Origin: a bacterium
GTDB taxonomy: Bacteria; Patescibacteriota; CPR2; UBA1875; CAIMLA01
NCBI GenBank assembly: GCA_037129835.1
Contig: JBAXUE010000002.1
Location: 66,334-130,333, forward strand
Direction: 5' to 3'
DNA length: 64,000 nucleotides
Positions 18,853 through 50,666 of this stretch are shown one piece after another. A program made the translations under genes and the position numbers. Under the pieces are notes generated by a model. That model saw nothing but the letters and a program-made list of their open reading frames with translations, had not been told where the DNA came from and made no database searches. Each line of letters opens with the position of its first letter. The stretch's first letter is position 1.

Positions 18853-18967
18853 AAATATATTTTATGCTATATATAGATAATAATGAAGAGAAATAAATAC
18901 AAATGGAGAAGGTCCGCGCCGGGAAGACGCTTTATATAGCTACCTTCTCGTTGCGGACCTCTTGGAC

Positions 18968-19342
18968 CTAGTCTTCGACCTCATCGATCCCGAGCATCGC
19001 TCTCGCGACTTCGATATCGGGTGCCAGGTCGAAGTTGTTGGTGTACTTCACCAACTTCTTAGAGACCTTCTCGTCCTCGGGGACTACGATCACAAACGGA
19101 ATGTGATCATTCATCAGGTACCGACCAAAGCTGTAGATACGGCCGATAGCCGCGCTACAAAGCTTGGTGACCATTGCGAGGTCGAGAATGACTCCGGCCT
19201 TGCGGGCCTTTATCAGAGTCTTGTCGAACTCGAGTCGGAGAACCGGCTCGACACTGTCGTCGAGATTTCCTCCGAGCTTCAGGATCACGGCCTTGTGGCC
19301 GTTACCTGCTTCGAACTTTTCGATACTGTGTACACAATGCAT
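18968..19342 (-). CDS. STAS-domain protein (SpoIIAA-like anti-sigma-factor antagonist fold)
   Basis: About 120 aa; alternating beta/alpha pattern with the conserved ...LDL..V..I.S..IG... region; sits in a locally GC-richer segment. Confidence 0.45.
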   Translation of the reverse strand: MHCVHSIEKFEAGNGHKAVILKLGGNLDDSVEPVLRLEFDKTLIKARKAGVILDLAMVTKLCSAAIGRIYSFGRYLMNDHIPFVIVVPEDEKVSKKLVKYTNNFDLAPDIEVARAMLGIDEVED

Positions 19343-19351
19343 ATATCCCCC

Positions 19352-19768
19352 TCAGTCGGTTTCTAGTATTGCCGGGTTTTCGGAAAAGAACCATGAACCC
19401 CACAGCTCTCTCTTGACACCTACTTGCAGCGAATGTACCCACATTCCCCCTATGGGGATTTCGAAAGAGGGAAAGAAATCGAGTTCGATCTCTCCCTGCC
19501 AAACCACTTTCTCACGGTCAACGATATCGTAGATGACAAGTGAGTCACCGGTCTGGAGCAAGTGCAGGCCATCATAGCCGCCTTGCCTTCCTTCTTCTTC
19601 GAAGGCCCAGAAACCTCCTTCGGTTCCGGTCTCGAAGTAGAAATGTAACGTACCCACAAGTTTCATGTGGCTCACCTCCCAAACGATGTTATCGTGATTG
19701 AGACAAAGAGGATTATACAACATAATGAGTGTTCTGTAAAGATAAACATATACTCCCCAGTCATCCAT
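19352..19768 (-). CDS. Hypothetical protein (true start may be the internal Met at about 19665)
   Basis: ORF only; N-terminal part overlaps repeat-derived sequence. Confidence 0.3.
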   Translation of the reverse strand: MDDWGVYVYLYRTLIMLYNPLCLNHDNIVWEVSHMKLVGTLHFYFETGTEGGFWAFEEEGRQGGYDGLHLLQTGDSLVIYDIVDREKVVWQGEIELDFFPSFEIPIGGMWVHSLQVGVKRELWGSWFFSENPAILETD

Positions 19769-26873: not shown

Positions 26874-28229
26874 CTAGTCTCTGCCACCCCTTTGTCTATT
26901 ACAATATCGGTGGACTAATCTGGCGTTTGATAGCTTGGTTTCTCCACCTCGCCAGTAAAACTCAATATGATCAACCTCAGAATCGTCTAAAACACGTATT
27001 TTTTGACCACATATTTTACAGGTTGAATCAGTGTCAAAAAGTTGCTTTTTCTCGTCGTGTGAATAGTTTCTTGTCTGTGACTTGGAATAATCTACGATTT
27101 TCCTCAAAGATTCTAGCCATTTCTCAAATCTGTATTGCACATTTTCTGGCTTATCTGTTGATGACTTCAAGGAATCTTCAAATTTCTTGACAGCTGTCAT
27201 TAAGTGTAAAAGTTCTTCGCGAATAGAATCAAGGTGAGGGATAATTTCGTTTTTTTGATACATCGTGAAACCCCACATTACGATGTCAAATAAGCCTTTG
27301 TTTATTTTTGTATTTTCCCACTTTCCGTTTGAGTCAGATTCTTCGCCTACAACAAACCTACGAAAAGCATTGTCACCAAATACTGAGCGAGTTAGGTCAA
27401 CAGATTTTTTAAAAACCTCACGAAGTTCTTTTGCTTTTTCTTCATTTAGATTTTGGTTATTATGCATTTCTTGATTTAGAAACTGTCTCATGGGTGCTTT
27501 GTATTTTAAGTATGAGTTATTATAAAAAGCGAAAAATCGTAATAAAAGCTCTCTATCAATCATTCTTATGGACATAGCTGGTGATTTTAATAATGTTTGA
27601 TATTCTTTATTTTCGGCAAGCTCGATTAGTAAGTCGTTATATTTTCCACGGTAAATACAGTTTCTGAGTTCCTGGTCGTTCAGCTTCACTGCGCCAGTAT
27701 TTAGTCTTTCGAAAACCTCAAATCTAACATTGATATCAGAATCCTTTTTGATTCTGATAAATGGTATAAGATAAGAATCAACTTTTCGCTGTGTTATTTT
27801 GTCTAGTTCCTTAAATGATTTCCTGTTTAGTCCTGTCAAAACCTTTAATCCCGAAAGGGCAAATTTTTCGTGCTTGTCTTGAAAGTACCCGTCCTTAAAA
27901 GAAAAGATAGAAATTAGTCTTTGTTGCCCGTCTATTACTGATTGGGTACCGTCATCTTCTTCGGCAGTGTATATTACTGGTATCGGGACTCCCAAGAGAA
28001 TAGATTCTATCAGTCTACTAGCTTTGCTTTTATCCCAGACATATCCTCTTTGAAAGTATGGTCTTACATCAAGTTCCCCTGCCTTGTAATCAGAATATAA
28101 GTCTTTTATGGCTCTACTGGGGTTGTCAAAGGTAATTCTTCTTTCATCCTCAGGTATATCAAAAACCAGTGGTTCGTTGTCATTATTGTCTTCTTCAAGA
28201 ATAACGTCATTATTATCTATTACCGTCAT
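26874..28229 (-). CDS. DUF262 (ParB/Srx-like NTPase) + C-terminal HNH nuclease protein, GmrSD/BrxU-like (copy 1)
   Basis: DGQQRLISIF (DUF262 DGQQR motif); C-terminal CKICGQK...DHIEFYWRGGETKLSNARLVHRYCN HNH. Confidence 0.7.
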   Translation of the reverse strand: MTVIDNNDVILEEDNNDNEPLVFDIPEDERRITFDNPSRAIKDLYSDYKAGELDVRPYFQRGYVWDKSKASRLIESILLGVPIPVIYTAEEDDGTQSVIDGQQRLISIFSFKDGYFQDKHEKFALSGLKVLTGLNRKSFKELDKITQRKVDSYLIPFIRIKKDSDINVRFEVFERLNTGAVKLNDQELRNCIYRGKYNDLLIELAENKEYQTLLKSPAMSIRMIDRELLLRFFAFYNNSYLKYKAPMRQFLNQEMHNNQNLNEEKAKELREVFKKSVDLTRSVFGDNAFRRFVVGEESDSNGKWENTKINKGLFDIVMWGFTMYQKNEIIPHLDSIREELLHLMTAVKKFEDSLKSSTDKPENVQYRFEKWLESLRKIVDYSKSQTRNYSHDEKKQLFDTDSTCKICGQKIRVLDDSEVDHIEFYWRGGETKLSNARLVHRYCNRQRGGRD

Positions 28230-28285
28230 AATTCTCCTTTACTTTGATCTATCGTTTTTGCTTATCAAGTTTTTTCATTGGTTCG

Positions 28286-29449
28286 CTATTTATTTCCCTT
28301 GGCACGGTTATGTGTTTTACAAAGCATCTCACAGTTATTGATATCTGTGGCGCCACCTTTACTCCATGCTGTAACATGGTCAGCATCCATTTCGGTAAGA
28401 CTCCAGATTTTTGTCTTGTTGGCGTCGTGACCGATTACGCAATTCGGACAATTTGAAATGCCTTTAGATTTAGCGGTCGTAGTTTGTGACGAATATACCG
28501 CTTTTTTAGTTGCCTCATCAAAAACACGAACTTCAAGTAGTTTCTTTTCATTAGACCCACCTAGAATATATTCAAATATTCCCTTTCGATTTTTTATGTA
28601 TGGGTCTCCATAAAGCTTTTGTACGGCCAATGACACTTTTGCAGGATCATAGGCTTTTGTATGAAATTTTTTATAAAGTCGACCCCAATCCAGGCCTCGC
28701 ATTTCACTTTCAACATCTATAAATACACCAGAAACCCATTCTATTACGCTTTTAAAATATGCTTTTAACTCAGTGATATTGTTATCAAAGCGGTGACGAC
28801 TCATATATTCGCCGTTATTACCACAACTAATCCAGTCTAAGGCTCTCTCTAGAAATTCCTGTCTGTTGGCACTGCCAGTTACATAAGCACTCCATTTTTG
28901 AATGTTGGCATTTTGACTATTACTGAATTCCTCTTTACCAAGTGTGACAAATGGACCAGAATAAACCGCATTTAATAGTTCTTGATTATTTAGCGGTACA
29001 CCGGCAATGTTTATGGTTTTGAACCACTCTTTTATTTCACTTTCTTCGCCCTCGCATTCGTATATAAGAAGCTCAGCGTTCATGATTTTAGCCTGCTTAT
29101 CTGAAGCAATTCCACTGAAGTATTGTTCCATGCCGTTTTCGTCTTTTATGGCAAATTTGTTATAAACGAATCGTCCGATACTAGTGATACGTTGTTGTCC
29201 GTCCAATACTTCTAAGTTGTCAGTGCTCACTTTGTTAAAATATATTAAGCCCAGCGGATAGTCTTTGAGTAATGAGTCAATGACCGCGACGTCTTTTTTA
29301 CCATCAGCATAGATGTAGTTACGTTGATACTCTGGCTGAATAGTGAGCTTGCCAGAGAGTCCGAACAAACCCTTGCCTTCATGCTGGTTATACACAAATC
29401 CTTCACATATATTTCTTACGGTTATGTTAGTTACTAAAGTAGTTTTCAT
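28286..29449 (-). CDS. DUF262 (ParB/Srx-like) + C-terminal HNH nuclease protein (copy 2, diverged paralogue)
   Basis: [14 protein letters not shown]; C-terminal CPNC...[29 protein letters not shown]. Confidence 0.7.
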
Positions 29450-30648
29450 GCTATACCTTTCTTGTGTTTGATTAAAATCCTAGCGAATGGAACCACAACA
29501 GTTTCATCTTTTATCATATATAAATCACCGTTCACCGTTCCTCTTTTTTGCACTTCTTTCCGATACTTTTTATGCTCAGGTTTATACGGTTTGACTCCGA
29601 TGGATAAGCCCAGGTTTGCTATTCCCAAACCAATAATATCAAATTGTTCAGGAGAATATTTGTCAAGGAAACTAATTGGCACGCCCATAATACCCTTAAA
29701 GTCTCCAGGAATATGTTTAACGAAAGGAACTTCTATTGCATTAAAATTATCATAATTATCAAAAGATCTTTTAGTGCCAAATTTTATAACGTCTGACAAT
29801 TTCATTAATGGTAAGAATTCGTGAAGCCTTCCGTGGTCAAGATTAGTAAACCAGCGAACACCTTGGACTCTCGTGATGTAAACTTTCTTACCATTTTCAT
29901 CCGTCCGTATTTCGCGTACTTGCTCTAGATTGGCAATATCTTCTGGTATTTCATAAAACATTGCTCCACCATTCACTTTATGATTATTGCCAAGCCAAAT
30001 CTTGTTATCCTTAATTAATGGAAAGACTTCTTTATAAGTAATAGCGTTCATACTACCAATTATTAAGAACTTTTTTTTGTACTCAATAAGTTGTTTTAAG
30101 TACTCGCGGAACAAACTGAAAGGCGGGTTAGTTACCACTATATCAGCCTGCTTTAGTAGCTCAACACACTCGTTGCTCCGAAAATCTCCGGCTGCGTATT
30201 TATCATCGCCAAGTAAAAGCGAATAAGCATTATTGTCATGTTCTAAAAGCCATTTCACATCATTAAGGTTGGTTATGCCATCTTTATTAAGGTCTGAAAC
30301 CTCATTGATCTCAATTTTAAATGCTTTTTTATTTTTTCGATTAGAAAGTGTCTTATTTTTACCCATTTCTTCGAAACCCGGTATTTGTATCTGTGTTTGT
30401 ACAATCGGCGAACCAACGTAGCTTGTCGTTATCAACTTTTTTAAGCCAAATTCCTTAAATTTATTTGCAAAATACTTGAAGAAATTACTTTCAAATGGGT
30501 CATCGCAGTTGCAATAGACTATCTTGCCGCGAAAAACATCAGGATCGTAATCAATGTAGGCTTGGATTTCCTTCTGAATATCTTGATATTGAGTATAAAA
30601 CTCGTCGTTTTTAGTCTTTTTTGCGTTATGTAAATTTTTTTGTGCCAT
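29446..30648 (-). CDS. N6-adenine DNA methyltransferase, M.EcoRI family (PF13651-like)
   Basis: N-terminus ...[15 protein letters not shown]...VYCNCDDP closely resembles M.EcoRI; NPPF catalytic motif ([10 protein letters not shown]); 4-nt overlap with the downstream gene. Confidence 0.7.
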
Positions 30649-30660
30649 TTAAAACCTTAT

Positions 30661-31128
30661 TTATTTTTCAAAGCAAATTGGATTAAATATCTTTTCAGGA
30701 AAATCGTTATCTCCAATTTTATATTTTAATTCACCGTTTGTTCCATGTACTGAATATTTTTCTCGATTGCGCTTTGACACAGAAATTGATTTGACTCCGG
30801 ACTGGCTAGGCCTTAACAACCTCTCAATTTCGTCATAGTTTAAGCAACAAACTCCTGCATCGTAACATACAAGTAGGACAAAAACCTTCTCAAACTTTGA
30901 TTTTAGCTCTAATAGTTTTTCGAGATGATTCTCCGAAAATGTAAAGCTCCAGGGGATTAACCGACTCTCAGTATATTTAACATATAAGCCACTTTCTCTG
31001 AGCTGAGAGAGAATCTTAAAACTAGAATTGTCATCATCAACATAATCACTAACACCAAGACATCTTTGGTCTTGAATTATTTTTAGTAAAGCTGCCCCGT
31101 AATATAGTTGATATTTAAAATTTGCCAT
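30661..31128 (-). CDS. Hypothetical 155-aa protein within the R-M/defence operon (candidate nuclease or specificity partner)
   Basis: ORF between the Z1 ATPase and the methyltransferase with 6-12 nt spacers; no recognisable motif. Confidence 0.35.
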   Translation of the reverse strand: MANFKYQLYYGAALLKIIQDQRCLGVSDYVDDDNSSFKILSQLRESGLYVKYTESRLIPWSFTFSENHLEKLLELKSKFEKVFVLLVCYDAGVCCLNYDEIERLLRPSQSGVKSISVSKRNREKYSVHGTNGELKYKIGDNDFPEKIFNPICFEK

Positions 31129-31134
31129 AATAAT

Positions 31135-33018
31135 TTATCTTAGCCTATAGTTTGCCTTTTTAAGGCTATCTTTAAAATAGTAAACAAATCTACACTTTCC
31201 TGCCTCGTTTCTGATCAACATAATATGGTGCTTTGCATTGGGAAAAGCGACCATTTCTGTACCACCAAAAACACCCCTACTTCTGTATAAAAAGTCCTTA
31301 TATTCAAGGTCATCTGTTTTTGAAACCATTCTTATTGGATGGAATGCTATGTCCTTGTCTGCAGTCATTCCACTGTATACAATAAAATTAATTAGAAATA
31401 GAGGCACCACACTGCCACCGTAAAGCCGGTTAACTTCTTTTAGCTTTTGGATATTACTTATTCCTTTTTTACTAATAATATCTGAAAAAATGCTAGCGTA
31501 ATCAAACATAGGAAAATACATTTCGTTTTTGTCAGTTAATATATTCTTCTTGTCGATACTAGAACTAGAGGCGGGCTTAACTCTTTGGCTTGAAATCCAA
31601 ACTGGTGCTGCACCCTCGTCATTGCTTTTTAATGATTTTAAAGATAAATCATGAAAAATAAAACAACGGTGCCAGTCCTCGAAAAGTGATTTTGGTATTG
31701 AGAGTTCAAAGAAGTCTTTGTATTTGCCTCTACTGCCGAACATTCTAGCTCTTTGGATATAAGTGTCTTGTTGAATCCTGTGTTTAGCAGTTCGTGTGAA
31801 GAACATGCCCAAAAGATTCTTTATTGTTAAGCCCCGGGAAATTATATTTCCACCAATTATTATTGTAAAAAGAGCTGGTGCATTAGTTGGGTCTTCTTCC
31901 ATTTTATTATTTGAGTTAATAACATAAACTTTTTTCTTATTAACATAATCTTTGACAAATGTTGTCACTTCTTTTGCTGCTATATCACCAAATCTTTCTT
32001 CTGCAATACTGTGTATTATTCCAAGGTAACGTTCCCATTTGGGACCCTTATTTGTATCTGCCAGTGCGTCAAAAAAATTATCTACAATTTTTTTATCTCT
32101 TTCGTGTTCACTTTTAATGCCACTTGTATGAATAATAAAAGCAAAATTAACATCATCATTATTCGCATTTTGTTCTACGAGCTTTTCCTTGTACTCGGGA
32201 TTTATATTTAAATAAGAAGCATTAACTAAAAAGCTTGCTAAAGCTTCATGTAAATATGATGGGTCATCTCCATTCTCAGGAAGTATATTCACCATGTATT
32301 CAACTTCGGTTATTTTTTCTAGATTAATTGGAAAAAAAAAGTCTTTGCCTACATAATTTTTATGAGAATCAAAAAATACCCATTCTTCAGATAAATTATC
32401 AAAAGTATTGTTAAGATCTAGTCGTGCTGGAGTGGCTGTTACCCCAACGTAGGTGCCGTCTCTTCGAAGTAATTTGCCGATTTCGTTATTAATTGCCGTT
32501 ACTTCATCTTTATTTATTTTAGAATTTGGGCTGGCATAATCAGCCTCGTCATCAATTATTATTAAACCACTTCTATTTCTTAGTTTTTCGTTTAAATTTG
32601 TTAAATTGCGGATATTTTTCTTTGAAAAAATTATAACCTGCCCATCATTTAAGTCTTCTTCAAGAAAAGCCCTGCTAGACATGGTATCTGGTGTAGGGTC
32701 GATACCTGAACTAGTAAATCTTTCGAGATTTTGAAGTTCAAGCTTTTTATTGTCATTCATGAGAATAACAATAGTGTTGTTGCCAATATCAAGTAATTTT
32801 GCTGTAAGCGATATCATCATTTCGGTTTTGCCACTTTGTGGCTCACCGTAAATCACAAATGATGTTATACCCTTTTGAATTTTTTCTACTGAATCTGAAA
32901 CAGCGTTTTCAATTTGAAAAGTATCAATACCCTTTTTATCTCTAAGGAAATTAATTCTTTTCTCATATCGGCTGTTTCTTCTATTTTCTGAGTCTCTATA
33001 ATCATCTGGATTAAACAT
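31135..33018 (-). CDS. Z1-domain SF2 helicase-like ATPase (restriction-system-associated)
   Basis: Motif I GEPQSGKT, motif II IIDDEADYAS, motif III GVTATP, motif V FTIIIGGNIISRGLTI, motif VI QQDTYIQRARMFGSRG (Z1-type QxxRxFGYR). Confidence 0.55.
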   Translation of the reverse strand: MFNPDDYRDSENRRNSRYEKRINFLRDKKGIDTFQIENAVSDSVEKIQKGITSFVIYGEPQSGKTEMMISLTAKLLDIGNNTIVILMNDNKKLELQNLERFTSSGIDPTPDTMSSRAFLEEDLNDGQVIIFSKKNIRNLTNLNEKLRNRSGLIIIDDEADYASPNSKINKDEVTAINNEIGKLLRRDGTYVGVTATPARLDLNNTFDNLSEEWVFFDSHKNYVGKDFFFPINLEKITEVEYMVNILPENGDDPSYLHEALASFLVNASYLNINPEYKEKLVEQNANNDDVNFAFIIHTSGIKSEHERDKKIVDNFFDALADTNKGPKWERYLGIIHSIAEERFGDIAAKEVTTFVKDYVNKKKVYVINSNNKMEEDPTNAPALFTIIIGGNIISRGLTIKNLLGMFFTRTAKHRIQQDTYIQRARMFGSRGKYKDFFELSIPKSLFEDWHRCFIFHDLSLKSLKSNDEGAAPVWISSQRVKPASSSSIDKKNILTDKNEMYFPMFDYASIFSDIISKKGISNIQKLKEVNRLYGGSVVPLFLINFIVYSGMTADKDIAFHPIRMVSKTDDLEYKDFLYRSRGVFGGTEMVAFPNAKHHIMLIRNEAGKCRFVYYFKDSLKKANYRLR

Positions 33019-43945: not shown

Positions 43946-44752
43946 TTATAAAACTTTTAATTCTTTCGCACGCTTTATTTGAGAAATATCTTCTGGTATT
44001 TTCCCAGCTAGAGAGTTTCCTTTAAATGATTGAATAATCCTAACTTCTTCAATATCAATATCGACTCGACTGGTAGAGGCTAATACCAGTCCTGGTTCTC
44101 TGATTGTGCCTTTTGACGGACCACCCGTGATAAAGCATTTTCTAGCATCCATAATGATGAGATCTGGTGTATAGATAGTATTCATCTCAGCGACTTTCTC
44201 GGATACTTTGCCGAGATGTAGACTGATTCTCTCTGTTGGCTTCATAAAGCCAATAATAATCTTCAGTGCACCGGTAAAGTCAGCGATAAAGTGGGTTTTG
44301 CAGCAGGGCAAGAGAATAATCTTGTCTACTTCATCCATGATCTTTGGCACTGATACTTTCTTTAGATATTTTCCTTCTGGGATTTGTTTTGTCACCCACT
44401 GATGGTCATCAAAAATGTATATATCCGGTGGTGTCTTGGATTTCTGCAGGTCATAGACACATGCCTTGCACAATGTCTTTTCTGTTGATATAGAGTGATT
44501 ACTGATAGTAAAAGTTGAGCTCTCGCCCACTATCACCCTTTTGGCTCCAGCTGCGAAGACGAGCTCGACAGTAGCTGCCAAGAAGTCTGGTGCTGTCGAT
44601 GCCGGTGATTCATCCGCGGTATTGTAGTTGGGCTTTATTAGTACAGTCTCACCTTTTTTAACGAAATTATCAAAACCACCAATTTCATCAACTGCTTTTT
44701 GAATTGATGGCTTAATATCTTTTTCTGCTTTTACCTTGGCTATATGCATCAT
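43946..44752 (-). CDS. DUF362 domain protein
   Basis: ...VLIKPNYNT... and overall length typical of DUF362. Confidence 0.45.
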   Translation of the reverse strand: MMHIAKVKAEKDIKPSIQKAVDEIGGFDNFVKKGETVLIKPNYNTADESPASTAPDFLAATVELVFAAGAKRVIVGESSTFTISNHSISTEKTLCKACVYDLQKSKTPPDIYIFDDHQWVTKQIPEGKYLKKVSVPKIMDEVDKIILLPCCKTHFIADFTGALKIIIGFMKPTERISLHLGKVSEKVAEMNTIYTPDLIIMDARKCFITGGPSKGTIREPGLVLASTSRVDIDIEEVRIIQSFKGNSLAGKIPEDISQIKRAKELKVL

Positions 44753-44765
44753 AATTTTTTTATCC

Positions 44766-46043
44766 TTATCTGATTATGTCTTCCATCCCATGTTTTAAAA
44801 GTAATCTAATGAACTCCCCAGAGGTAAATATCTTTGCGAAGTTTGGTCCACTAGCGGTAAGGTCCGCACCTTCTTTTTCTGAGAGCAGCTTAAGTAGCGC
44901 TTCGGCTTCTTCTGGGTCAACGATATTTTCTACTGAGTGTGAGCTTTTCCCTCCGATTTGAATAGCTGATTTTCTTCTTTGTTTTCTTGTTTCTGACATG
45001 TAATAATCAGTCATAAATTTATCATAGTCTGGGTCCATCATAGATACCTCTCGATAGATTCCTTCATTGGTTAACTCAGTCATTTCTTCATTTATCTCAT
45101 ATCCGGTCATCATGACAGTGTCGCCTTCACTATTATCTATCCTGATTCTCCCACCCAAAATCTTAACAGCATATCCGTCTTTTAGTGTTCCGTCTGGTTT
45201 TAGTAGCCTTTCTTTGTAAAAGTTTTCAACTCTAGTCTTGAACTCGGCATTCTGCTTATAATGATTGTTATTTTTGATAAAACTGTTTATCAGCTGTCTT
45301 TCGAAATTAGCTATTATCACTTTTGCTAGTCTATCTTTTTCTTCTGGGTCGGTTACTAACTCTGGCTTTGACTCTAGGTGAATATATTCATGAGACAGTG
45401 TATGTGATACATCAAGTAGCTTCATTTGTCGTATTTGCTCTGGTGTATGAATAGCTGTGATCTCTGGGCTCTCAAACTGATATGAAAATTCCTGCATATT
45501 CTTTTTTACGTCTGCATAAGTCATATATGCCTTACCGTCCTCGACGAAGCTAGTAGTGGCAAATACATAATCTTTTCCTGGTTCTAGGTACATGGTGAAT
45601 TCAAATTCGTCCTTAAGAATCTTTTGTAGATCTTTTGTTTCAGTAGAACGACTGTCAGATTCTTTCTTTTCTATTACTTCGCCGTCCACTATTTCGAATA
45701 AATCGGCTGAGAAATCTGCTGCGATATCTGGGACAATTTTTTCCATTGCTTGTTTTACAGATATAGATGCTTCAGCTATCAATGATTGCATAACAGGGAT
45801 AATCTCTGCCTTTTCTTTCTCAATATCTCGGGTCATCTCATTAGCTTCATTTATTTGATCAATACTGTCTTGAGACCCCTTGGGGTCGTTCTCACGGTGT
45901 TTTGTAAAAAATCCCTCTGCTCTTGAGTAATCTTCTGTGCTAGGCAATGTAACATTGCGATCACTCGCTATTGCTTCTGCAATTTTCTTTACTACGAGTC
46001 CTTCTTTGTAGGCTTCGTCGTTGCTAAGTCTTTCTGGTGTCAT
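44766..46043 (-). CDS. Hypothetical protein with HExxH motif (SHEYIH)
   Basis: ORF; acidic; possible zincin-like. Confidence 0.35.
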   Translation of the reverse strand: MTPERLSNDEAYKEGLVVKKIAEAIASDRNVTLPSTEDYSRAEGFFTKHRENDPKGSQDSIDQINEANEMTRDIEKEKAEIIPVMQSLIAEASISVKQAMEKIVPDIAADFSADLFEIVDGEVIEKKESDSRSTETKDLQKILKDEFEFTMYLEPGKDYVFATTSFVEDGKAYMTYADVKKNMQEFSYQFESPEITAIHTPEQIRQMKLLDVSHTLSHEYIHLESKPELVTDPEEKDRLAKVIIANFERQLINSFIKNNNHYKQNAEFKTRVENFYKERLLKPDGTLKDGYAVKILGGRIRIDNSEGDTVMMTGYEINEEMTELTNEGIYREVSMMDPDYDKFMTDYYMSETRKQRRKSAIQIGGKSSHSVENIVDPEEAEALLKLLSEKEGADLTASGPNFAKIFTSGEFIRLLLKHGMEDIIR

Positions 46044-46168
46044 ATTATTCTTCCCTTATTATCAAATATTACCTCAGTTAGTTGTTGTAAACAACCTTAG
46101 TTTACAAAAGTTCGGAGCCCAAGATCGGGCCCCATTAGGGTGCCGTCCATGGGCTCATATTGTTCTAC

Positions 46169-46510
46169 TTACTTCTTCTCGAAGGCTGGTGGTTTTACCC
46201 ACACACCTCTTTTGCGAAGTAGCTTATAGAAACCTTTTAGGATATCTTGGTATTCCGACTCTACAGTCGAAATGTTGAGCTGTTGCCAAGCCTCCTTTAG
46301 TTCTCGATACGAGATGTTGCTCGCTAGTGACTTCCACTGGTCTTGAGCCCCAAAGTAGAAGATATAGCTACTAGGGCCGCATCGCTTTCCGGTGATGTGT
46401 ATCACTATTTCTCGACGACGATTCGACTTGCATAAATAGACTTTGACACAGTTGTGTCGAAAGCATCTGCCGATAAAGCCAAGCTTACTCACGATGGGTC
46501 CTCCTCTCAC
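46169..46510 (-). pseudogene. Cys/basic-rich ORF inside a GC-rich island; possibly a remnant of a larger disrupted gene (continues in another frame at 46534-46917)
   Basis: Atypical composition, adjacent out-of-frame ORF, no domain recognised. Confidence 0.2.
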
Positions 46511-47269
46511 TAGGGGCAGATTGTGCGACTACTCTAGCTGCGGTGCTTCTTCTTCCCTTTTCTTGGGTGAGCAGCAGTTACGGCCTTGCCACAACCTCTG
46601 GCGCAACATTTCCTGCAACGCCGCAGATCCTTTTCGTTACAGATTCGCATGCTCGCTCCCCCCGATAGTAATGGATACCAGACTAGGTGATAATATACTA
46701 AAATATTTGTCAGAGCAAGGTAAATCTGCTCAAAATTAATTAATAATTGTAAATATATTTTGTAATATGCGGCCATTTTCTTTGCATAAAGCCACAAAGG
46801 TTCTCTCAGCTTTTGCTCAGATTTGATGTATACAATATAGATGTCATTTAAACAAGGAAGGAGATGAATGACAAAACCTGGCGAGTAGTGATCGCCGCTA
46901 TCAAGACTTGGCGCCACTGGAGGACACGAATTTCACAAAGAGTTGGTGCTAGTGTGTCGCAAAAGTCGGATAGCAAATACAGTTCAGGGCTAGAAGTACA
47001 TATTCTCAGCTCGGGCAGGGTCACGAAAACCACCACAACTAAATATATATTTTTCATTCCACTCAAAATAATAGAGGCCATCCCCCGGCCTCTATTATTA
47101 TTAATATCAATAATGCAAAAAGCCATCGTTTGGGAACGATAGCTTCCATAGGCATTCCTCTCTGTTGTTGGAATAATAGATGGTTTGCTGTTTGGTCGAA
47201 GTCCTCTGCGATATTACTCGCTCTCTCACCTACTGGTGAGACCCATGGGCTCCATTGTTGCGGTGTTGA

Positions 47270-47512
47270 CTAGCTTGGGAATTTGATTCGCTTGCCAATT
47301 TTTTCGGCTCTTACTGCCTTAAGGAATTCTTCGGGTTCTATCCCAAAGTGCTCCGAGAGCCAGTTTTGAACCTCACAGAGGGCGTAGTTGCGTTCCCACA
47401 ACGTATCTCCTCTAAAGGACTGTGAAGCCAAAGCGATAACCTCCGCTCTGCTAAAACTGTCATAACCGTCTTTGTTGGTACTGTTACTCCCTTTCTTCAT
47501 GATTGTCTCCAA
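47270..47512 (-). CDS. Hypothetical small protein (80 aa) at the edge of a GC-rich island
   Basis: ORF only. Confidence 0.3.
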   Translation of the reverse strand: METIMKKGSNSTNKDGYDSFSRAEVIALASQSFRGDTLWERNYALCEVQNWLSEHFGIEPEEFLKAVRAEKIGKRIKFPS

Positions 47513-47632
47513 TCGCTAAACGCTGGTTTGATCCAACGCTGTCGTCTTATGAACGACAAGAACTGATAGGACTTAACACAAACGATATTATAGTCATTTA
47601 ACGGGGTTTTGTCAATAAGCATCAATAATAAA

Positions 47633-47664
47633 GCCGAGGTGATCTTTCCCCCTCGGTTTTATTT
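47633..47664 (-). terminator. Rho-independent terminator hairpin (ccgagg...cctcgg + T-run), usable on either strand
   Basis: 6-bp GC stem, 12-nt loop, TTTTATTT after on plus; T-rich after on minus; downstream of the ABC ATPase gene. Confidence 0.45.
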
Positions 47665-47672
47665 AATGGTAA

Positions 47673-48554
47673 TTATTTTGCTACTTTGCCGTCGACTATC
47701 GTGATCGTACGAGTGCAGAGTTTGGCCACTTCTGGATTATGGGTAACAATTATAAATGTCTGCCCGTGCTGATTGAGTCGAACTATAAGATCCATTATTT
47801 CTTTGGTCATTTTGATATCTAGTTCTCCTGTAAGCTCATCACCAAATATAATTGCTGGTTTATTTACTAGAGAGCGAGCTATTGCTACTCTCTGCCGTTG
47901 ACCGCCCGAAAGTTCGTTTGGAGTGTGAGTAAGTCTATCTCCAAGCCCCACAAGCCTTAACGATTTTTCTGCAAGTGCCCTTCGTTCGTTTCTCGGAGTT
48001 TTTCCATAACGGAGTGGTAGCATCACATTTTCTATGGCTGTCAGCGTTGGAATCAGATTGAAAGATTGAAAGACAAAGCCGAGCTCGCTAGATCGGACTT
48101 CTGGTAGTTTGTTTTGACTAATTCCAGTAACATTGACGCCTCGTAGAAATATCTGCCCAGTCGTTGGCTCGTCTAGAAGGCCTAGCATATTTAAAAGAGT
48201 TGATTTCCCAGAACCAGATGGTCCCATAATAGCAACCATCTCCCCCTTTTTAATATCTATGTCCACGCCATTTAGGGCATGGACAACAACCCCTTTTTCA
48301 TTTTTGCCTTCTTTTATTTTTTTACCCGTTAGAAAATGATAAGTTTCGACGTATTTTTCTTTATCAAATAAATCTTGTGCTTTTTCTAGTCTTATCTCAA
48401 TTTCAGAAATTTTTTCAGTATTATTCTTTGAAACTGCTTTTTCATAAGCATGATGAAGTTTGTGGATTGCTTCCTGGGCCTTTATTGCCACCTTCTTATT
48501 CCCCATAATGTAAACCTTGCGAAGGTTATTAAGCTTTAGAATAGTATCGGCCAT
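47673..48554 (-). CDS. ABC transporter ATP-binding protein (MacB/LolD/FtsE-like) with about 70-aa N-terminal coiled-coil extension
   Basis: GPSGSGKSTLLN Walker A, LSGGQRQRVAIARSL signature, IIFGDELTGELD Walker B. Confidence 0.85.
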   Translation of the reverse strand: MADTILKLNNLRKVYIMGNKKVAIKAQEAIHKLHHAYEKAVSKNNTEKISEIEIRLEKAQDLFDKEKYVETYHFLTGKKIKEGKNEKGVVVHALNGVDIDIKKGEMVAIMGPSGSGKSTLLNMLGLLDEPTTGQIFLRGVNVTGISQNKLPEVRSSELGFVFQSFNLIPTLTAIENVMLPLRYGKTPRNERRALAEKSLRLVGLGDRLTHTPNELSGGQRQRVAIARSLVNKPAIIFGDELTGELDIKMTKEIMDLIVRLNQHGQTFIIVTHNPEVAKLCTRTITIVDGKVAK

Positions 48555-48556
48555 GA

Positions 48557-49711
48557 TTATTCCTCCCTCAGTGATTTAACAATACTGATTTTCACCGCAT
48601 AGTAAGCGGGGTAAATACCCGCAATTACGCCGATGGCGAGCGAGAATATCATTGAACCGATAAGTAACCTAGGAGTGAGTAAAAATATCTTGTCCCCAGT
48701 CTGCTCCATATAATAGTTCACTAAATATACAATAACAGCTCCAAGGGCTATCCCGATGGCGCCACCAAAAAATCCGATAACGCCAGCTTCTGTAAGATAT
48801 TCGAGTAATATATTGCGGTTTTTTGCCCCTAGAGCTTTCTTTATCCCTATTTCCTTAGTTCTTTCTGAAATTGACATCGTCATGGTATTGACTATTGATA
48901 GCGTGCCAACAAGAAGTGAGATGATACAAATTCCGTAAATAATTGAGTTAAAAGTTTGCATTGTAGATGCTATTTGGTCTTGAAATTGTTTCGGTCCAAG
49001 AGTATCAACGCCTTTGACCTCTTTCTTTATTTTTTCTGATAATTTATTTGGGTCTACACCTTTTTTAGGATAGGCAATAAAGCCATAAACCAGATCGTCT
49101 GGTTTCGTAGTATTTCTAAGTAATTCGGGTAATTCATTGTACATTATTTCTCTACCATCATGTAAAGAGACGGATATTTGAGTATCAGGTAGAGTGAAAG
49201 TTTTTTCGGCAATGCCAACAACTTCAAAATTTTTACCTCTAATTTTGATATTTTCTCCCACCTTGGCTTTTAGTTTTTTTACTAGGTCTGCGCCGACCAA
49301 TGCCTTGTTACGGTCTGAAGCAGTAATAGCTCGCCCACTAGTAAGTCTAATTTTAAAGCTTTCGTAATCGTTGGATTTTTCGTCAATGCTAATAATGTTT
49401 GCTAGTGGTCCAAGACTAGCAGTGATGTTATCACTAAGTAGTGAATAAGTTTCGGCCGCTACATATGCGACGCCATCGACTTTTTCTATTTCTTTTTTCT
49501 TATCAATCTTTAATGGGCTACTATATGTACTTATTTTGGCAGATATTTCTACTTTGTCCTTATAATATTCTGCCCCTCCATCTACAAGCAAACTCAGTTT
49601 CTCGGCGATAGCTCCCATAACCACAAGGGCCAGGATACCGATGGCGATACCAAAAACCGTCAGTAGTGTTCTGGTTTTTCGTCTCCACATATTTTTTAAG
49701 ATTTCAAACAT
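48557..49711 (-). CDS. ABC transporter permease, MacB_PCD + FtsX domain
   Basis: N-terminal TM, large periplasmic domain, C-terminal 3-TM FtsX-like module; 2-nt spacing to the ATPase gene. Confidence 0.8.
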   Translation of the reverse strand: MFEILKNMWRRKTRTLLTVFGIAIGILALVVMGAIAEKLSLLVDGGAEYYKDKVEISAKISTYSSPLKIDKKKEIEKVDGVAYVAAETYSLLSDNITASLGPLANIISIDEKSNDYESFKIRLTSGRAITASDRNKALVGADLVKKLKAKVGENIKIRGKNFEVVGIAEKTFTLPDTQISVSLHDGREIMYNELPELLRNTTKPDDLVYGFIAYPKKGVDPNKLSEKIKKEVKGVDTLGPKQFQDQIASTMQTFNSIIYGICIISLLVGTLSIVNTMTMSISERTKEIGIKKALGAKNRNILLEYLTEAGVIGFFGGAIGIALGAVIVYLVNYYMEQTGDKIFLLTPRLLIGSMIFSLAIGVIAGIYPAYYAVKISIVKSLREE

Positions 49712-49760
49712 TTAATTCCTTATGATTATGAAAATATTTTAACATAATTATGAATGATAA

Positions 49761-49816
49761 ATAATAAAAAGAAAAGGCCCGCACTAGGGTAGGTGTGAAC
49801 CTTCTCTTTGCGGGCC
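49761..49816 (-). terminator. Hairpin ggcccgca...tgcgggcc followed by a U-run on the minus strand
   Basis: 8-bp GC stem; plus-strand A-run 49761-49775 becomes a U-tract on the minus strand. Confidence 0.4.
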
Positions 49817-49828
49817 GTTGTGTCTTGT

Positions 49829-50631
49829 TTAGAACAGGGAGGGCTGGTCTTTCCCAGCAGCATCAGACGTATCTGATACTTGCAGTTTGTCGATAGGTCC
49901 CTTTGGAAACCTCTCGACAAACTCCTCGAGATTACTGTCTTGCACCAACCAGCTCTGTTCTATCTTGCGATTGAACTTCCTACTCAGTGCATTGCTGATG
50001 ATGTGTGAGAAGTTCACAGTAGTAGTGAACTCCCGGGGACGAGCGTGCCACGCGTCGTGTTGCTTCTGCGTGACATAGATACCGACACTCAAGCCGGCGA
50101 CCTTGAATACCCCGATGTAGGGGCAATTGGGTCTGGTGACCTTCATTTTTGTTACATCTGTAGTGCTAGTGCGTTTGGCCAAGCCAAACACCCCCTTCAG
50201 TTTAGTGAGATGTACAGGTCGGTTCTTGCTCTTTCAGGTTCGTGCCGGGCTGCCATAAAGAGTAAAACAATCGCTCTTCTGCTGGCCAAAACCAGTGTTT
50301 CAGGATCTTTGGTTGTTGGGCCGAAGCAACCGCTTTCGATGTACTCGATCTGATCGCCGATAATCTCAGCAATCGTGATCATGTCATCGGGCACTTGATA
50401 ATGTGCCGCGAAGTTTAGTACCGCCTCTCTTTGGACAGAAGCCGTTAACAGTACAGTAATACTGAGTTCAGGCTCGAGACCTAGATCTTCACAGCGTTGA
50501 ACTAGCATGTCTTGGACTGCCCCAAGTATTAGTGTGCTTAAAGCCGCCATTGACAATCCCCTCGTTTCTAGACGAATTGTGTAGGTACAATGTAAATTAC
50601 TATACCACTTTATGGTATATTTGTAAAGCAT
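49829..50631 (-). pseudogene. Two adjacent out-of-frame ORFs (50197-50631 and 49829-50191) in a GC-rich island: frameshifted or programmed-frameshift gene of unknown function
   Basis: ORFs abut within 6 nt in different frames; GC content well above genome background. Confidence 0.3.
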
Positions 50632-50637
50632 GATTTA

Positions 50638-50666
50638 CGCAAAAAACAGCCCTAAGTCGGGGCTGT
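50638..50666 (-). terminator. Hairpin acagccc/gggctgt followed by UUUUUU on the minus strand
   Basis: Read from sequence: gggctgttttttgcg on the minus strand. Confidence 0.45.

Follow-up and report, generated by a model that had tools for sequence, protein, structure and literature searches.

The window analysed here is a 64,000-nt stretch of contig JBAXUE010000002.1 (assembly GCA_037129835.1) from an uncultured bacterium of the Patescibacteriota, and the locus in question is the gap at 46044–47672 (1,629 nt) between a gene for a 425-amino-acid (aa) protein (44766–46043) and an ABC ATPase gene (47673–48554), both on the minus strand. We consider it probable that this locus is a strain-variable accessory stretch of the chromosome, which carries three small lineage-restricted protein genes and one previously undescribed structured RNA and holds no selfish element. 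The gap would comprise two modules. In module A (47615–46790), a consensus promoter would drive the gene of a 76-aa helical protein, ending at two tandem terminators, and a plus-strand transcript of ~260 nt would converge on the second of these, a bidirectional hairpin. In this RNA, an invariant purine-rich 5′ segment would be followed by three conserved hairpins. In module B (46790–46100), a weakly predicted promoter would lead into a bicistron, encoding a 38-aa cationic Cys-rich peptide and a 107-aa basic β4-α3 protein, and then into a terminator. An earlier note, made from the letters of the window, had described the region as a GC-rich island with no credible gene, and had proposed a degraded mobile element, an intron remnant, or a large structured RNA. 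Its observations were borne out in part, and its interpretation was for the most part mistaken.

Related contigs were gathered by exact-protein look-ups and one metagenome scan, and they reduced to three distinct alleles: the window-type allele (L001–L005 and L010), the L007/L006-type allele (96% identical over 5.8 kb and ~10% diverged inside the island), and the L008/L009-type allele (84% identical). The contigs derive from the data sets JGI 3300021473 and 3300021601, ENA ERZ273001xx, and SRR7053572, and the source samples were taken from a lake.

A candidate structured RNA on the plus strand

The candidate structured small RNA (sRNA) of ~260 nt lies on the plus strand at ~46843–47103 and consists of a purine-rich 5′ segment, hairpins P1–P3, an A/C/U-rich linker, and a terminator. 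The 5′ segment (AAGGAAGGAGAUGAAUGAC) is invariant and contains a good ribosome-binding site followed by an AUG at 46864. In the RNAalifold consensus of the three alleles, P1 was placed at 46880–46896, P2 at 46897–46974 (78 nt), and P3 at 46982–47016, all on the plus strand. On the alignment, the consensus fold had 47 pairs, 97.9% of the cells were paired, and 6 pairs were changed on both sides; for example, a G-C pair has become A-U at 46913/46958, and three pairs further in an A-U pair has become G-C. In controls in which the fold was slid by 1–3 columns, 30–39% of the cells were paired and 0–2 pairs were double-sided, and the observed values were matched by 2 of 500 shuffles. We also examined the placement of substitutions relative to a structure predicted from the window sequence alone, which avoids circularity. 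The 34 substitutions of L008 kept 43 of the 47 pairs, against 36.0 ± 2.0 under random placement (P = 0.00035). The interval 46790–46965 was conserved in L008 despite showing no coding signal, and no synonymous excess was observed in any frame on either strand at 46790–47066.

The strand of the RNA can be assigned as plus because of its G·U pairs, folding energies, and z-scores. Each allele has 5–7 G·U pairs, which become A·C mismatches if read on the minus strand. The minimum free energies of the three alleles were −50.8, −46.7, and −50.7 kcal/mol on the plus strand and −31.4, −37.2, and −42.1 kcal/mol on the minus strand; the fold z-scores were −4.6, −4.4, and −6.5 on the plus strand and −0.75 on the minus strand. 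A terminator-like hairpin is present on the minus strand (46896–46880), yet that strand carries no fold signal. The full transcript of ~265 nt folded at −81 kcal/mol with a z-score of −4.5. A candidate −10 box was read from the alignment at 46831–46836 (plus; TACAAT, and TATAAT in L008), which the consensus scan did not report. This box would place the start of the RNA near 46843 and may drive its expression; the RNA may act by base-pairing or by protein binding. At the other end, the plus-strand U-tract of the terminator is interrupted (AUUAUUAUU).

No Rfam family was found for the plus-strand RNA. When duplexfold was run against 51 translation-initiation regions to predict targets, the duplexes were full of loops and none stood out clearly, and the result was judged uninformative. 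Two other candidates were set aside. A 92-aa ORF (open reading frame) on the minus strand (46848–47126) begins inside terminators. As for a CsrB-like sponge, a count by eye, made without computation, gave about six GGA motifs against roughly three expected, and no CsrA match was obtained with the 76-aa protein. The plus-strand transcript most likely acts as a non-coding regulatory RNA.

The 76-aa protein gene

The 76-aa protein gene is located on the minus strand at 47270–47500, with its ATG at 47500; the product would be 80 aa if translation started at the TTG at 47512. The consensus scan identified a sigma-70-type promoter upstream of it (47587–47615, minus; TTGACA-17-TATAAT, 12/12 matches), both hexamers of which are identical in L008 while 10 of the 17 spacer bases differ. 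The 5′ untranslated region (UTR) of ~80 nt (47501–47580, minus) contains two hairpins and a GGAGA 6 nt before the ATG; its fold z-score was −2.9, and it is nearly invariant in L007 and L008. The 76-aa ORF is open in all alleles, and the two other frames of the same strand are full of stops. Compared with L008, it shows 6 synonymous and 9 non-synonymous substitutions, the latter mostly conservative, with 5/2/10 changes at the three codon positions; compared with L007, the counts are 5 synonymous and 3 non-synonymous, with 0/2/6 at the codon positions.

In the 3′ UTR, a conserved hairpin is followed by a 10-bp stem with UUUUU and then by the hairpin at 47099–47067. The 10-bp stem (AGCUAUCGUU/AACGAUGGCU) is the predicted first intrinsic terminator (47116–47145, minus), and its lone change in L008 still pairs, as G·U. 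The second is a perfect 13-bp hairpin at 47067–47099, which the earlier note had already listed as a hairpin terminator, at 47070–47093. It is a predicted bidirectional terminator, read on both strands and common to the 76-aa gene (minus) and the plus-strand RNA; in L008, its stem carries the compensatory change of GGCC/GGCC to GACC/GGTC.

The only homologues found for the 76-aa protein were P0003 (96% identity) and P0004 (88%), and a metagenome scan with the 76-aa alignment returned near-identical contigs only. It had no match in Pfam, NCBIfam, PHROG, PADLOC, or PDB sequences. The protein is hydrophilic (grand average of hydropathy −0.67). Its AlphaFold model is a three-helix bundle of low confidence (predicted local distance difference test [pLDDT], 60), too poor for a structure search.

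Strain variability of the locus

The presence of the segment does vary between strains, a comparison that the earlier note had suggested: L008 keeps only the part from 47612 to ~46790. L008 (1–2149, compared with window positions 44648–49936) contains neither the pair of ABC/FtsX transporter genes nor the 38-aa/107-aa operon nor the 425-aa gene. It joins window position ~49763, at the terminator of a 120-aa gene (~49770), straight to 47612, in the promoter of the 76-aa gene. Since the terminator of the 120-aa gene runs directly into this promoter, the ABC transporter pair is missing from L008. The homology starts exactly at the −35 hexamer of the 76-aa gene and ends at ~46790, past the RNA. 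Beyond that point, L008 carries a hairpin of the AGAGGCC-GGGGGA-GGCCTCT type, an unrelated 237-aa gene on the other strand, and then a DUF362 gene; in the window, the DUF362 gene (43946–44752) comes after the 425-aa gene. A terminator of the upstream ABC-transporter operon (stop at 47673), read from the sequence at 47630–47660 (minus) as a CCGAGG...CCTCGG hairpin with a T-run, is absent from L008, the strain without the ABC genes.

Of the island, L008 retains just the 76-aa gene and the RNA, among other neighbours, which makes the locus a strain-variable hotspot; the interval from the 120-aa gene to DUF362, whose content is replaced there, is a rearrangement hotspot. Module A thus persists where the ABC transporter, the 425-aa gene, and module B are all missing. 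Its two components, the 76-aa gene and the RNA, behave as one unit, since both persist in L008 despite the changed surroundings. The transporter, the 425-aa gene, and the 38-aa/107-aa operon are variable cargo.

One further contig, L011, is a recombinant: it is window-like (98.7% identity overall) and carries the L007-type allele only at 46822–47330, precisely where the RNA and the 3′ portion of the 76-aa gene lie. This mosaic indicates recombination within the population. L008 has conserved the 120-aa gene together with its terminator. The 237-aa protein of L008 has an internal duplication and a signal-peptide-like N-terminus. Terminator hairpins of the type AGAGRCC-GGGGGA(T)-GGYCTCT occur twice in L008 (735–760 and 1046–1072, ~300 nt apart) and once in the 64-kb window (47073–47093); the repeated hairpin of L008 could be a duplicated terminator module.

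The 38-aa/107-aa bicistron

The two remaining small genes also lie on the minus strand. The 38-aa ORF (MRICNEKDLRRCRKCCARGCGKAVTAAHPRKGKKKHRS) is located at 46534–46650, with GGGGGGAG 5 nt upstream, and encodes a Cys/Lys/Arg-rich peptide (5 Cys, 14 Lys + Arg; isoelectric point [pI], 10.7). In L006/L007 it remains intact and has all 5 Cys; 4 substitutions are synonymous and 2 non-synonymous. The 107-aa gene (46169–46492) has a GTG start with GAGGAGG 7 nt upstream and encodes a basic protein (pI 9.9). It is likewise intact in L006/L007 (83% aa identity), with 13 synonymous and 17 non-synonymous substitutions; of the latter, 9 fall within the first 25 residues and affect three Cys. Plus-strand ORFs that overlap the 38-aa and 107-aa ORFs gain stops across alleles 5–10% diverged. 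A weak candidate promoter of this operon was read from the sequence at 46690–46718 (minus; TTGCTC-17-TATTAT, 8/12), within the AT-rich spacer of the region and below the threshold of the consensus scan, and an intrinsic terminator was found by the terminator scan at 46113–46134 (minus), where the L007 changes fall in the loop.

GenBank lists the 107-aa product as a hypothetical protein (MEI6266636.1), and the accession numbering implies, or leaves room for, an annotation of the 76-aa protein too. When the 107-aa protein was searched with HMMER over 1.84 billion protein representatives, only the allele P0002 and one EF-hand-repeat protein were found; the latter match is eukaryote-like, aligned through three repeats, and we regarded it as spurious. 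The AlphaFold model of this protein shows four strands followed by three helices (β4-α3; pLDDT 69), and Foldseek gave nothing significant with it, the best PDB match having an E-value of 0.28 (PUR-alpha/PC4-like single-stranded nucleic-acid binders) and the best viral match 0.026. For the 38-aa peptide, no homologue or family was found, including in a search of PDB sequences; a resemblance to bL36 was considered, but no profile match supports that identity. A word-indexed search of 5.8 billion clustered proteins with the 107-, 80-, and 127-aa ORFs returned near-identical alleles at most, and Pfam, NCBIfam, PHROGs, and PADLOC on every candidate ORF, together with PDB sequences, gave no match above noise. 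As a working guess, the two very basic small proteins (38 and 107 aa) bind nucleic acid.

The Cys/Arg-rich ORFs that the earlier note had listed at 46169–46510 and 46534–46917 both exist, and they are on the minus strand like all their neighbours. The second (127 aa) has no Shine-Dalgarno site, no homologues, and no synonymous excess, and was rejected as a gene. On the other hand, the statement that the island has no credible gene does not hold, as three small minus-strand ORFs with ribosome-binding sites and with a promoter and/or terminators stay open in diverged alleles. The suggestion of a large structured RNA is borne out for ~260 nt (plus, ~46843–47103), where covariation was observed, while the remainder is made up of small minus-strand protein genes.

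Weighing of alternative explanations

We looked for traces of an intron, a mobile element, or a known RNA. Rfam cmscan of the whole window gave 0 matches at the gathering threshold, so that none of the families suggested by the earlier note (group II intron, RNase P, ribozymes) was matched; at E ≤ 10 over 45900–47800 and 46800–47130, only terminator-like noise and no intron or ribozyme model appeared. A tRNA/tmRNA scan found none. Pfam on the six frames of 46044–47672, with stops masked, gave no family at E ≤ 0.1 and no remnant of a reverse transcriptase, transposase, or integrase. The segment has no terminal inverted repeats, no second copy or paralogue of any part of it occurs within the 64-kb window, and neither blastn of the region against phages and plasmids nor relative and pattern scans of viral contigs gave any match.

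The reading of the earlier note, in which CCATGGGCTC repeats bound a degraded mobile element or the remnant of a group II intron, is thus very unlikely, and for practical purposes it is already refuted. It could draw on the mildly raised GC, on one exact 10-mer close to each end, on the GTGCGAC motif, and on the differences of the locus between strains. The flanking repeats, however, have only the exact 10-mer CCATGGGCTC in common (46147 and 47243), which is at chance level: an exact direct repeat of at least 10 nt occurs in 72% of composition-matched random 1.6-kb sequences, and all 39 of the 1.6-kb tiles of the window contain one of at least 9 nt. As a specific word CCATGGGCTC is rare in the window, but it was picked after the fact. 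Its copy at 46147 is altered in the L007 allele, and the boundaries of presence and absence in L008 (47612 and ~46790) lie away from both copies. GTGCGAC, which sits at 46523 and not at 46521 as first given, is likewise at chance level, with 5 occurrences in the window against 2.4 expected. This heptamer, resembling the 5′ GUGYG, is the only likeness to group II introns; unlike them, the locus has no domain I–VI structures, no intron-encoded reverse transcriptase, and no interrupted host gene. It also differs from insertion sequences and miniature inverted-repeat transposable elements in the features searched for above, that is, inverted repeats at the ends, a transposase or integrase domain, and a second copy in the window. 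Decaying, non-functional DNA left by hotspot rearrangements, in which the small ORFs would be spurious or pseudogene fragments, is an explanation to which we give little credence. It fits the lack of any ORF homologue outside alleles at least 83% identical, the weak constraint on the 107-aa ORF (13 synonymous vs 17 non-synonymous changes, N-terminal Cys not conserved), and the high local divergence (~10% in the RNA region vs a mean of 3.6%). Against it, the three ORFs stay open while antisense ORFs gain stops, a terminator and a correctly spaced Shine-Dalgarno site accompany each ORF, the promoter hexamers are kept where the spacer diverged, the 76-aa ORF shows third-position bias, and compensatory changes maintain the RNA structure.

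It is also unlikely that the plus-strand transcript encodes, as an mRNA or dual-function sRNA, a short Arg/Trp-rich peptide starting at AUG 46864, and forms with the convergent 76-aa gene a two-component unit comparable with type I toxin-antitoxin systems or Bacillus subtilis SR7. Several observations fit such a unit: no part of the RNA is better conserved than the invariant AAGGAAGGAG-AUG, the first ~30 codons can be aligned in all alleles, the Shine-Dalgarno region of the window allele is predicted to pair with a 3′ segment as in type I toxin mRNAs, a convergent layout with a shared bidirectional terminator is also found in par of pAD1 (PMC7472228) and in SR7/rpsD (PMC7834092), and in L008 the RNA still accompanies the 76-aa gene although the neighbourhood has changed. 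The ORF from AUG 46864, however, is 92, 93, and 40 aa long in the three alleles, passes through the terminator in the window strain, shows 3 synonymous and 12 non-synonymous substitutions against L008, and is shifted in frame in L008 by a 1-nt deletion. A non-coding RNA is favoured because this ORF is conserved neither in length nor in frame nor in sequence. In addition, neither product is like a type I toxin, the peptide being non-hydrophobic and the 76-aa protein hydrophilic, and the long-range 5′–3′ helix is broken at 3 of its 9 pairs in L008. Module A as a self-contained new kind of two-component unit, in which the 76-aa gene and the convergent RNA share a terminator and move together between contexts, seems improbable as well; it would amount to a protein with a dedicated RNA regulator or sponge, or to an RNA-controlled toxin/antitoxin-like pair, in one uncultured lineage.

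The preferred account, an accessory stretch with three small genes and a non-coding structured RNA, has several points to contend with. With only three alleles, none less than 84% identical to another, few independent events underlie the covariation statistics, and in the substitution-placement test L007 alone gave P = 0.069. For neither the RNA nor the 38-aa/107-aa operon did the search yield a convincing −35 hexamer, and a short product may be translated from the conserved Shine-Dalgarno site and AUG that the RNA carries at its 5′ end. Support for the 38-aa ORF is weak because it comes from a single allele comparison with 6 substitutions, and the 13:17 ratio of synonymous to non-synonymous changes in the 107-aa ORF indicates weak constraint. 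The function of the proteins is a guess, since they have no homologue, domain, or confident fold match.

Genomic setting and composition

The genes of the window are nearly all on the minus strand and include those for topoisomerase I, S-adenosylmethionine synthetase, a P-type ATPase, the ABC/FtsX transporter pair, and a restriction/defence cluster. Contigs identical to it occur in several metagenome assemblies and one NCBI metagenome-assembled genome (MAG). GC is indeed raised in the island but only mildly: it is 0.439 at 46050–47600 against a window mean of 0.390 (tile standard deviation, 0.028), within the top 4.4% of sliding windows. The rise is not uniform, as it falls in two blocks (46200–46600 and 47200–47600) with an AT-rich core between them (46690–46860), and GC higher than that of the island is found elsewhere in the window, at 16–20 kb and 49.8–50.4 kb. 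No ORF in 46044–47672 exceeds 127 aa.

A second, stronger GC bump at 49800–50650 (maximum 0.51) coincides with a further pair of orphan ORFs (120 and 144 aa), neither of them matched in Pfam or PADLOC. At 18962–19768, the GC-richest part of the window (~0.46), beside the P-type cation ATPase gene, ORFs of more than 120 aa overlap on both strands; the two minus-strand ORFs there had no Pfam match. The defence/restriction cluster (26874–33018, minus) comprises two neighbouring GmrSD_N + HNH proteins, an EcoRI-type adenine methyltransferase, a 155-aa orphan, and a Z1-domain SWI2/SNF2 helicase. A scan of genome contigs with the 425-aa neighbour found no relative, and a scan of genome contigs with the DUF362 neighbour found four loci, none of them syntenic. 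The closest relatives of the DUF362 protein in the genome collection (67–70% identity) belong to three Bacillota MAGs and one unclassified MAG.

Comparison with known systems and significance

Stand-alone regulatory sRNA genes with a Rho-independent terminator, such as SR1 and SR7, offer the nearest comparison, and the RNA resembles an ordinary bacterial sRNA of this class. In B. subtilis, SR7 and rpsD are convergent and have a bidirectional terminator in common, and SR1 and SR7 encode SR1P and SR7P, conserved 39-aa peptides (PMC7834092). Like these genes, the present RNA would be an intergenic transcript of 200–300 nt on the strand opposite to its neighbours, a stack of hairpins ending in a terminator, with a Shine-Dalgarno site and AUG at its 5′ end; like SR7, it would converge on a neighbouring gene with which it has a bidirectional terminator in common. 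Unlike SR1 and SR7, it has no conserved small ORF, as frame and length vary, and it is known from the sequences of three closely related alleles only.

Type I toxin-antitoxin systems have been reviewed for Clostridia (PMC6563280), and in par of pAD1 the convergent transcripts (fst RNA I and RNA II) meet at a bidirectional terminator (PMC7472228). The present locus is similar in that two predicted convergent transcripts meet at a bidirectional terminator, that one of them is a highly structured RNA of ~250 nt with a Shine-Dalgarno site and AUG, and that it lies in a strain-variable region. It differs in lacking an ORF for a small hydrophobic toxin, in that the candidate peptide is Arg/Trp-rich and varies in length, and in that the partner gene encodes a hydrophilic 76-aa protein. 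Unlike in par of pAD1, the predicted transcripts overlap only across the 33-nt terminator, and paired direct repeats (DRa/DRb) are absent.

The protein-coding part resembles orphan small-protein operons in variable islets, with ORFs of 38, 76, and 107 aa that have their own signals and no homologues, with atypical GC, and with presence and absence among close strains; it consists of lineage-specific orphan small-protein operons with nothing distinctive about them. The outcome removes a false lead, as there is no intron or mobile element, and it illustrates that short genes on the expected strand can pass for a gene desert to a naive reader.

To our knowledge, almost no regulatory RNAs are known in such an uncultured bacterium. 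The item of lasting value is the candidate structured sRNA, which is supported by compensatory changes and keeps its link with a small orphan protein gene where the context is rearranged. If the pairing of RNA and protein is not functional, the locus would be an ordinary example of strain-variable orphan genes; if it is functional, one RNA of ~260 nt and one 76-aa protein would make a small and tractable system.

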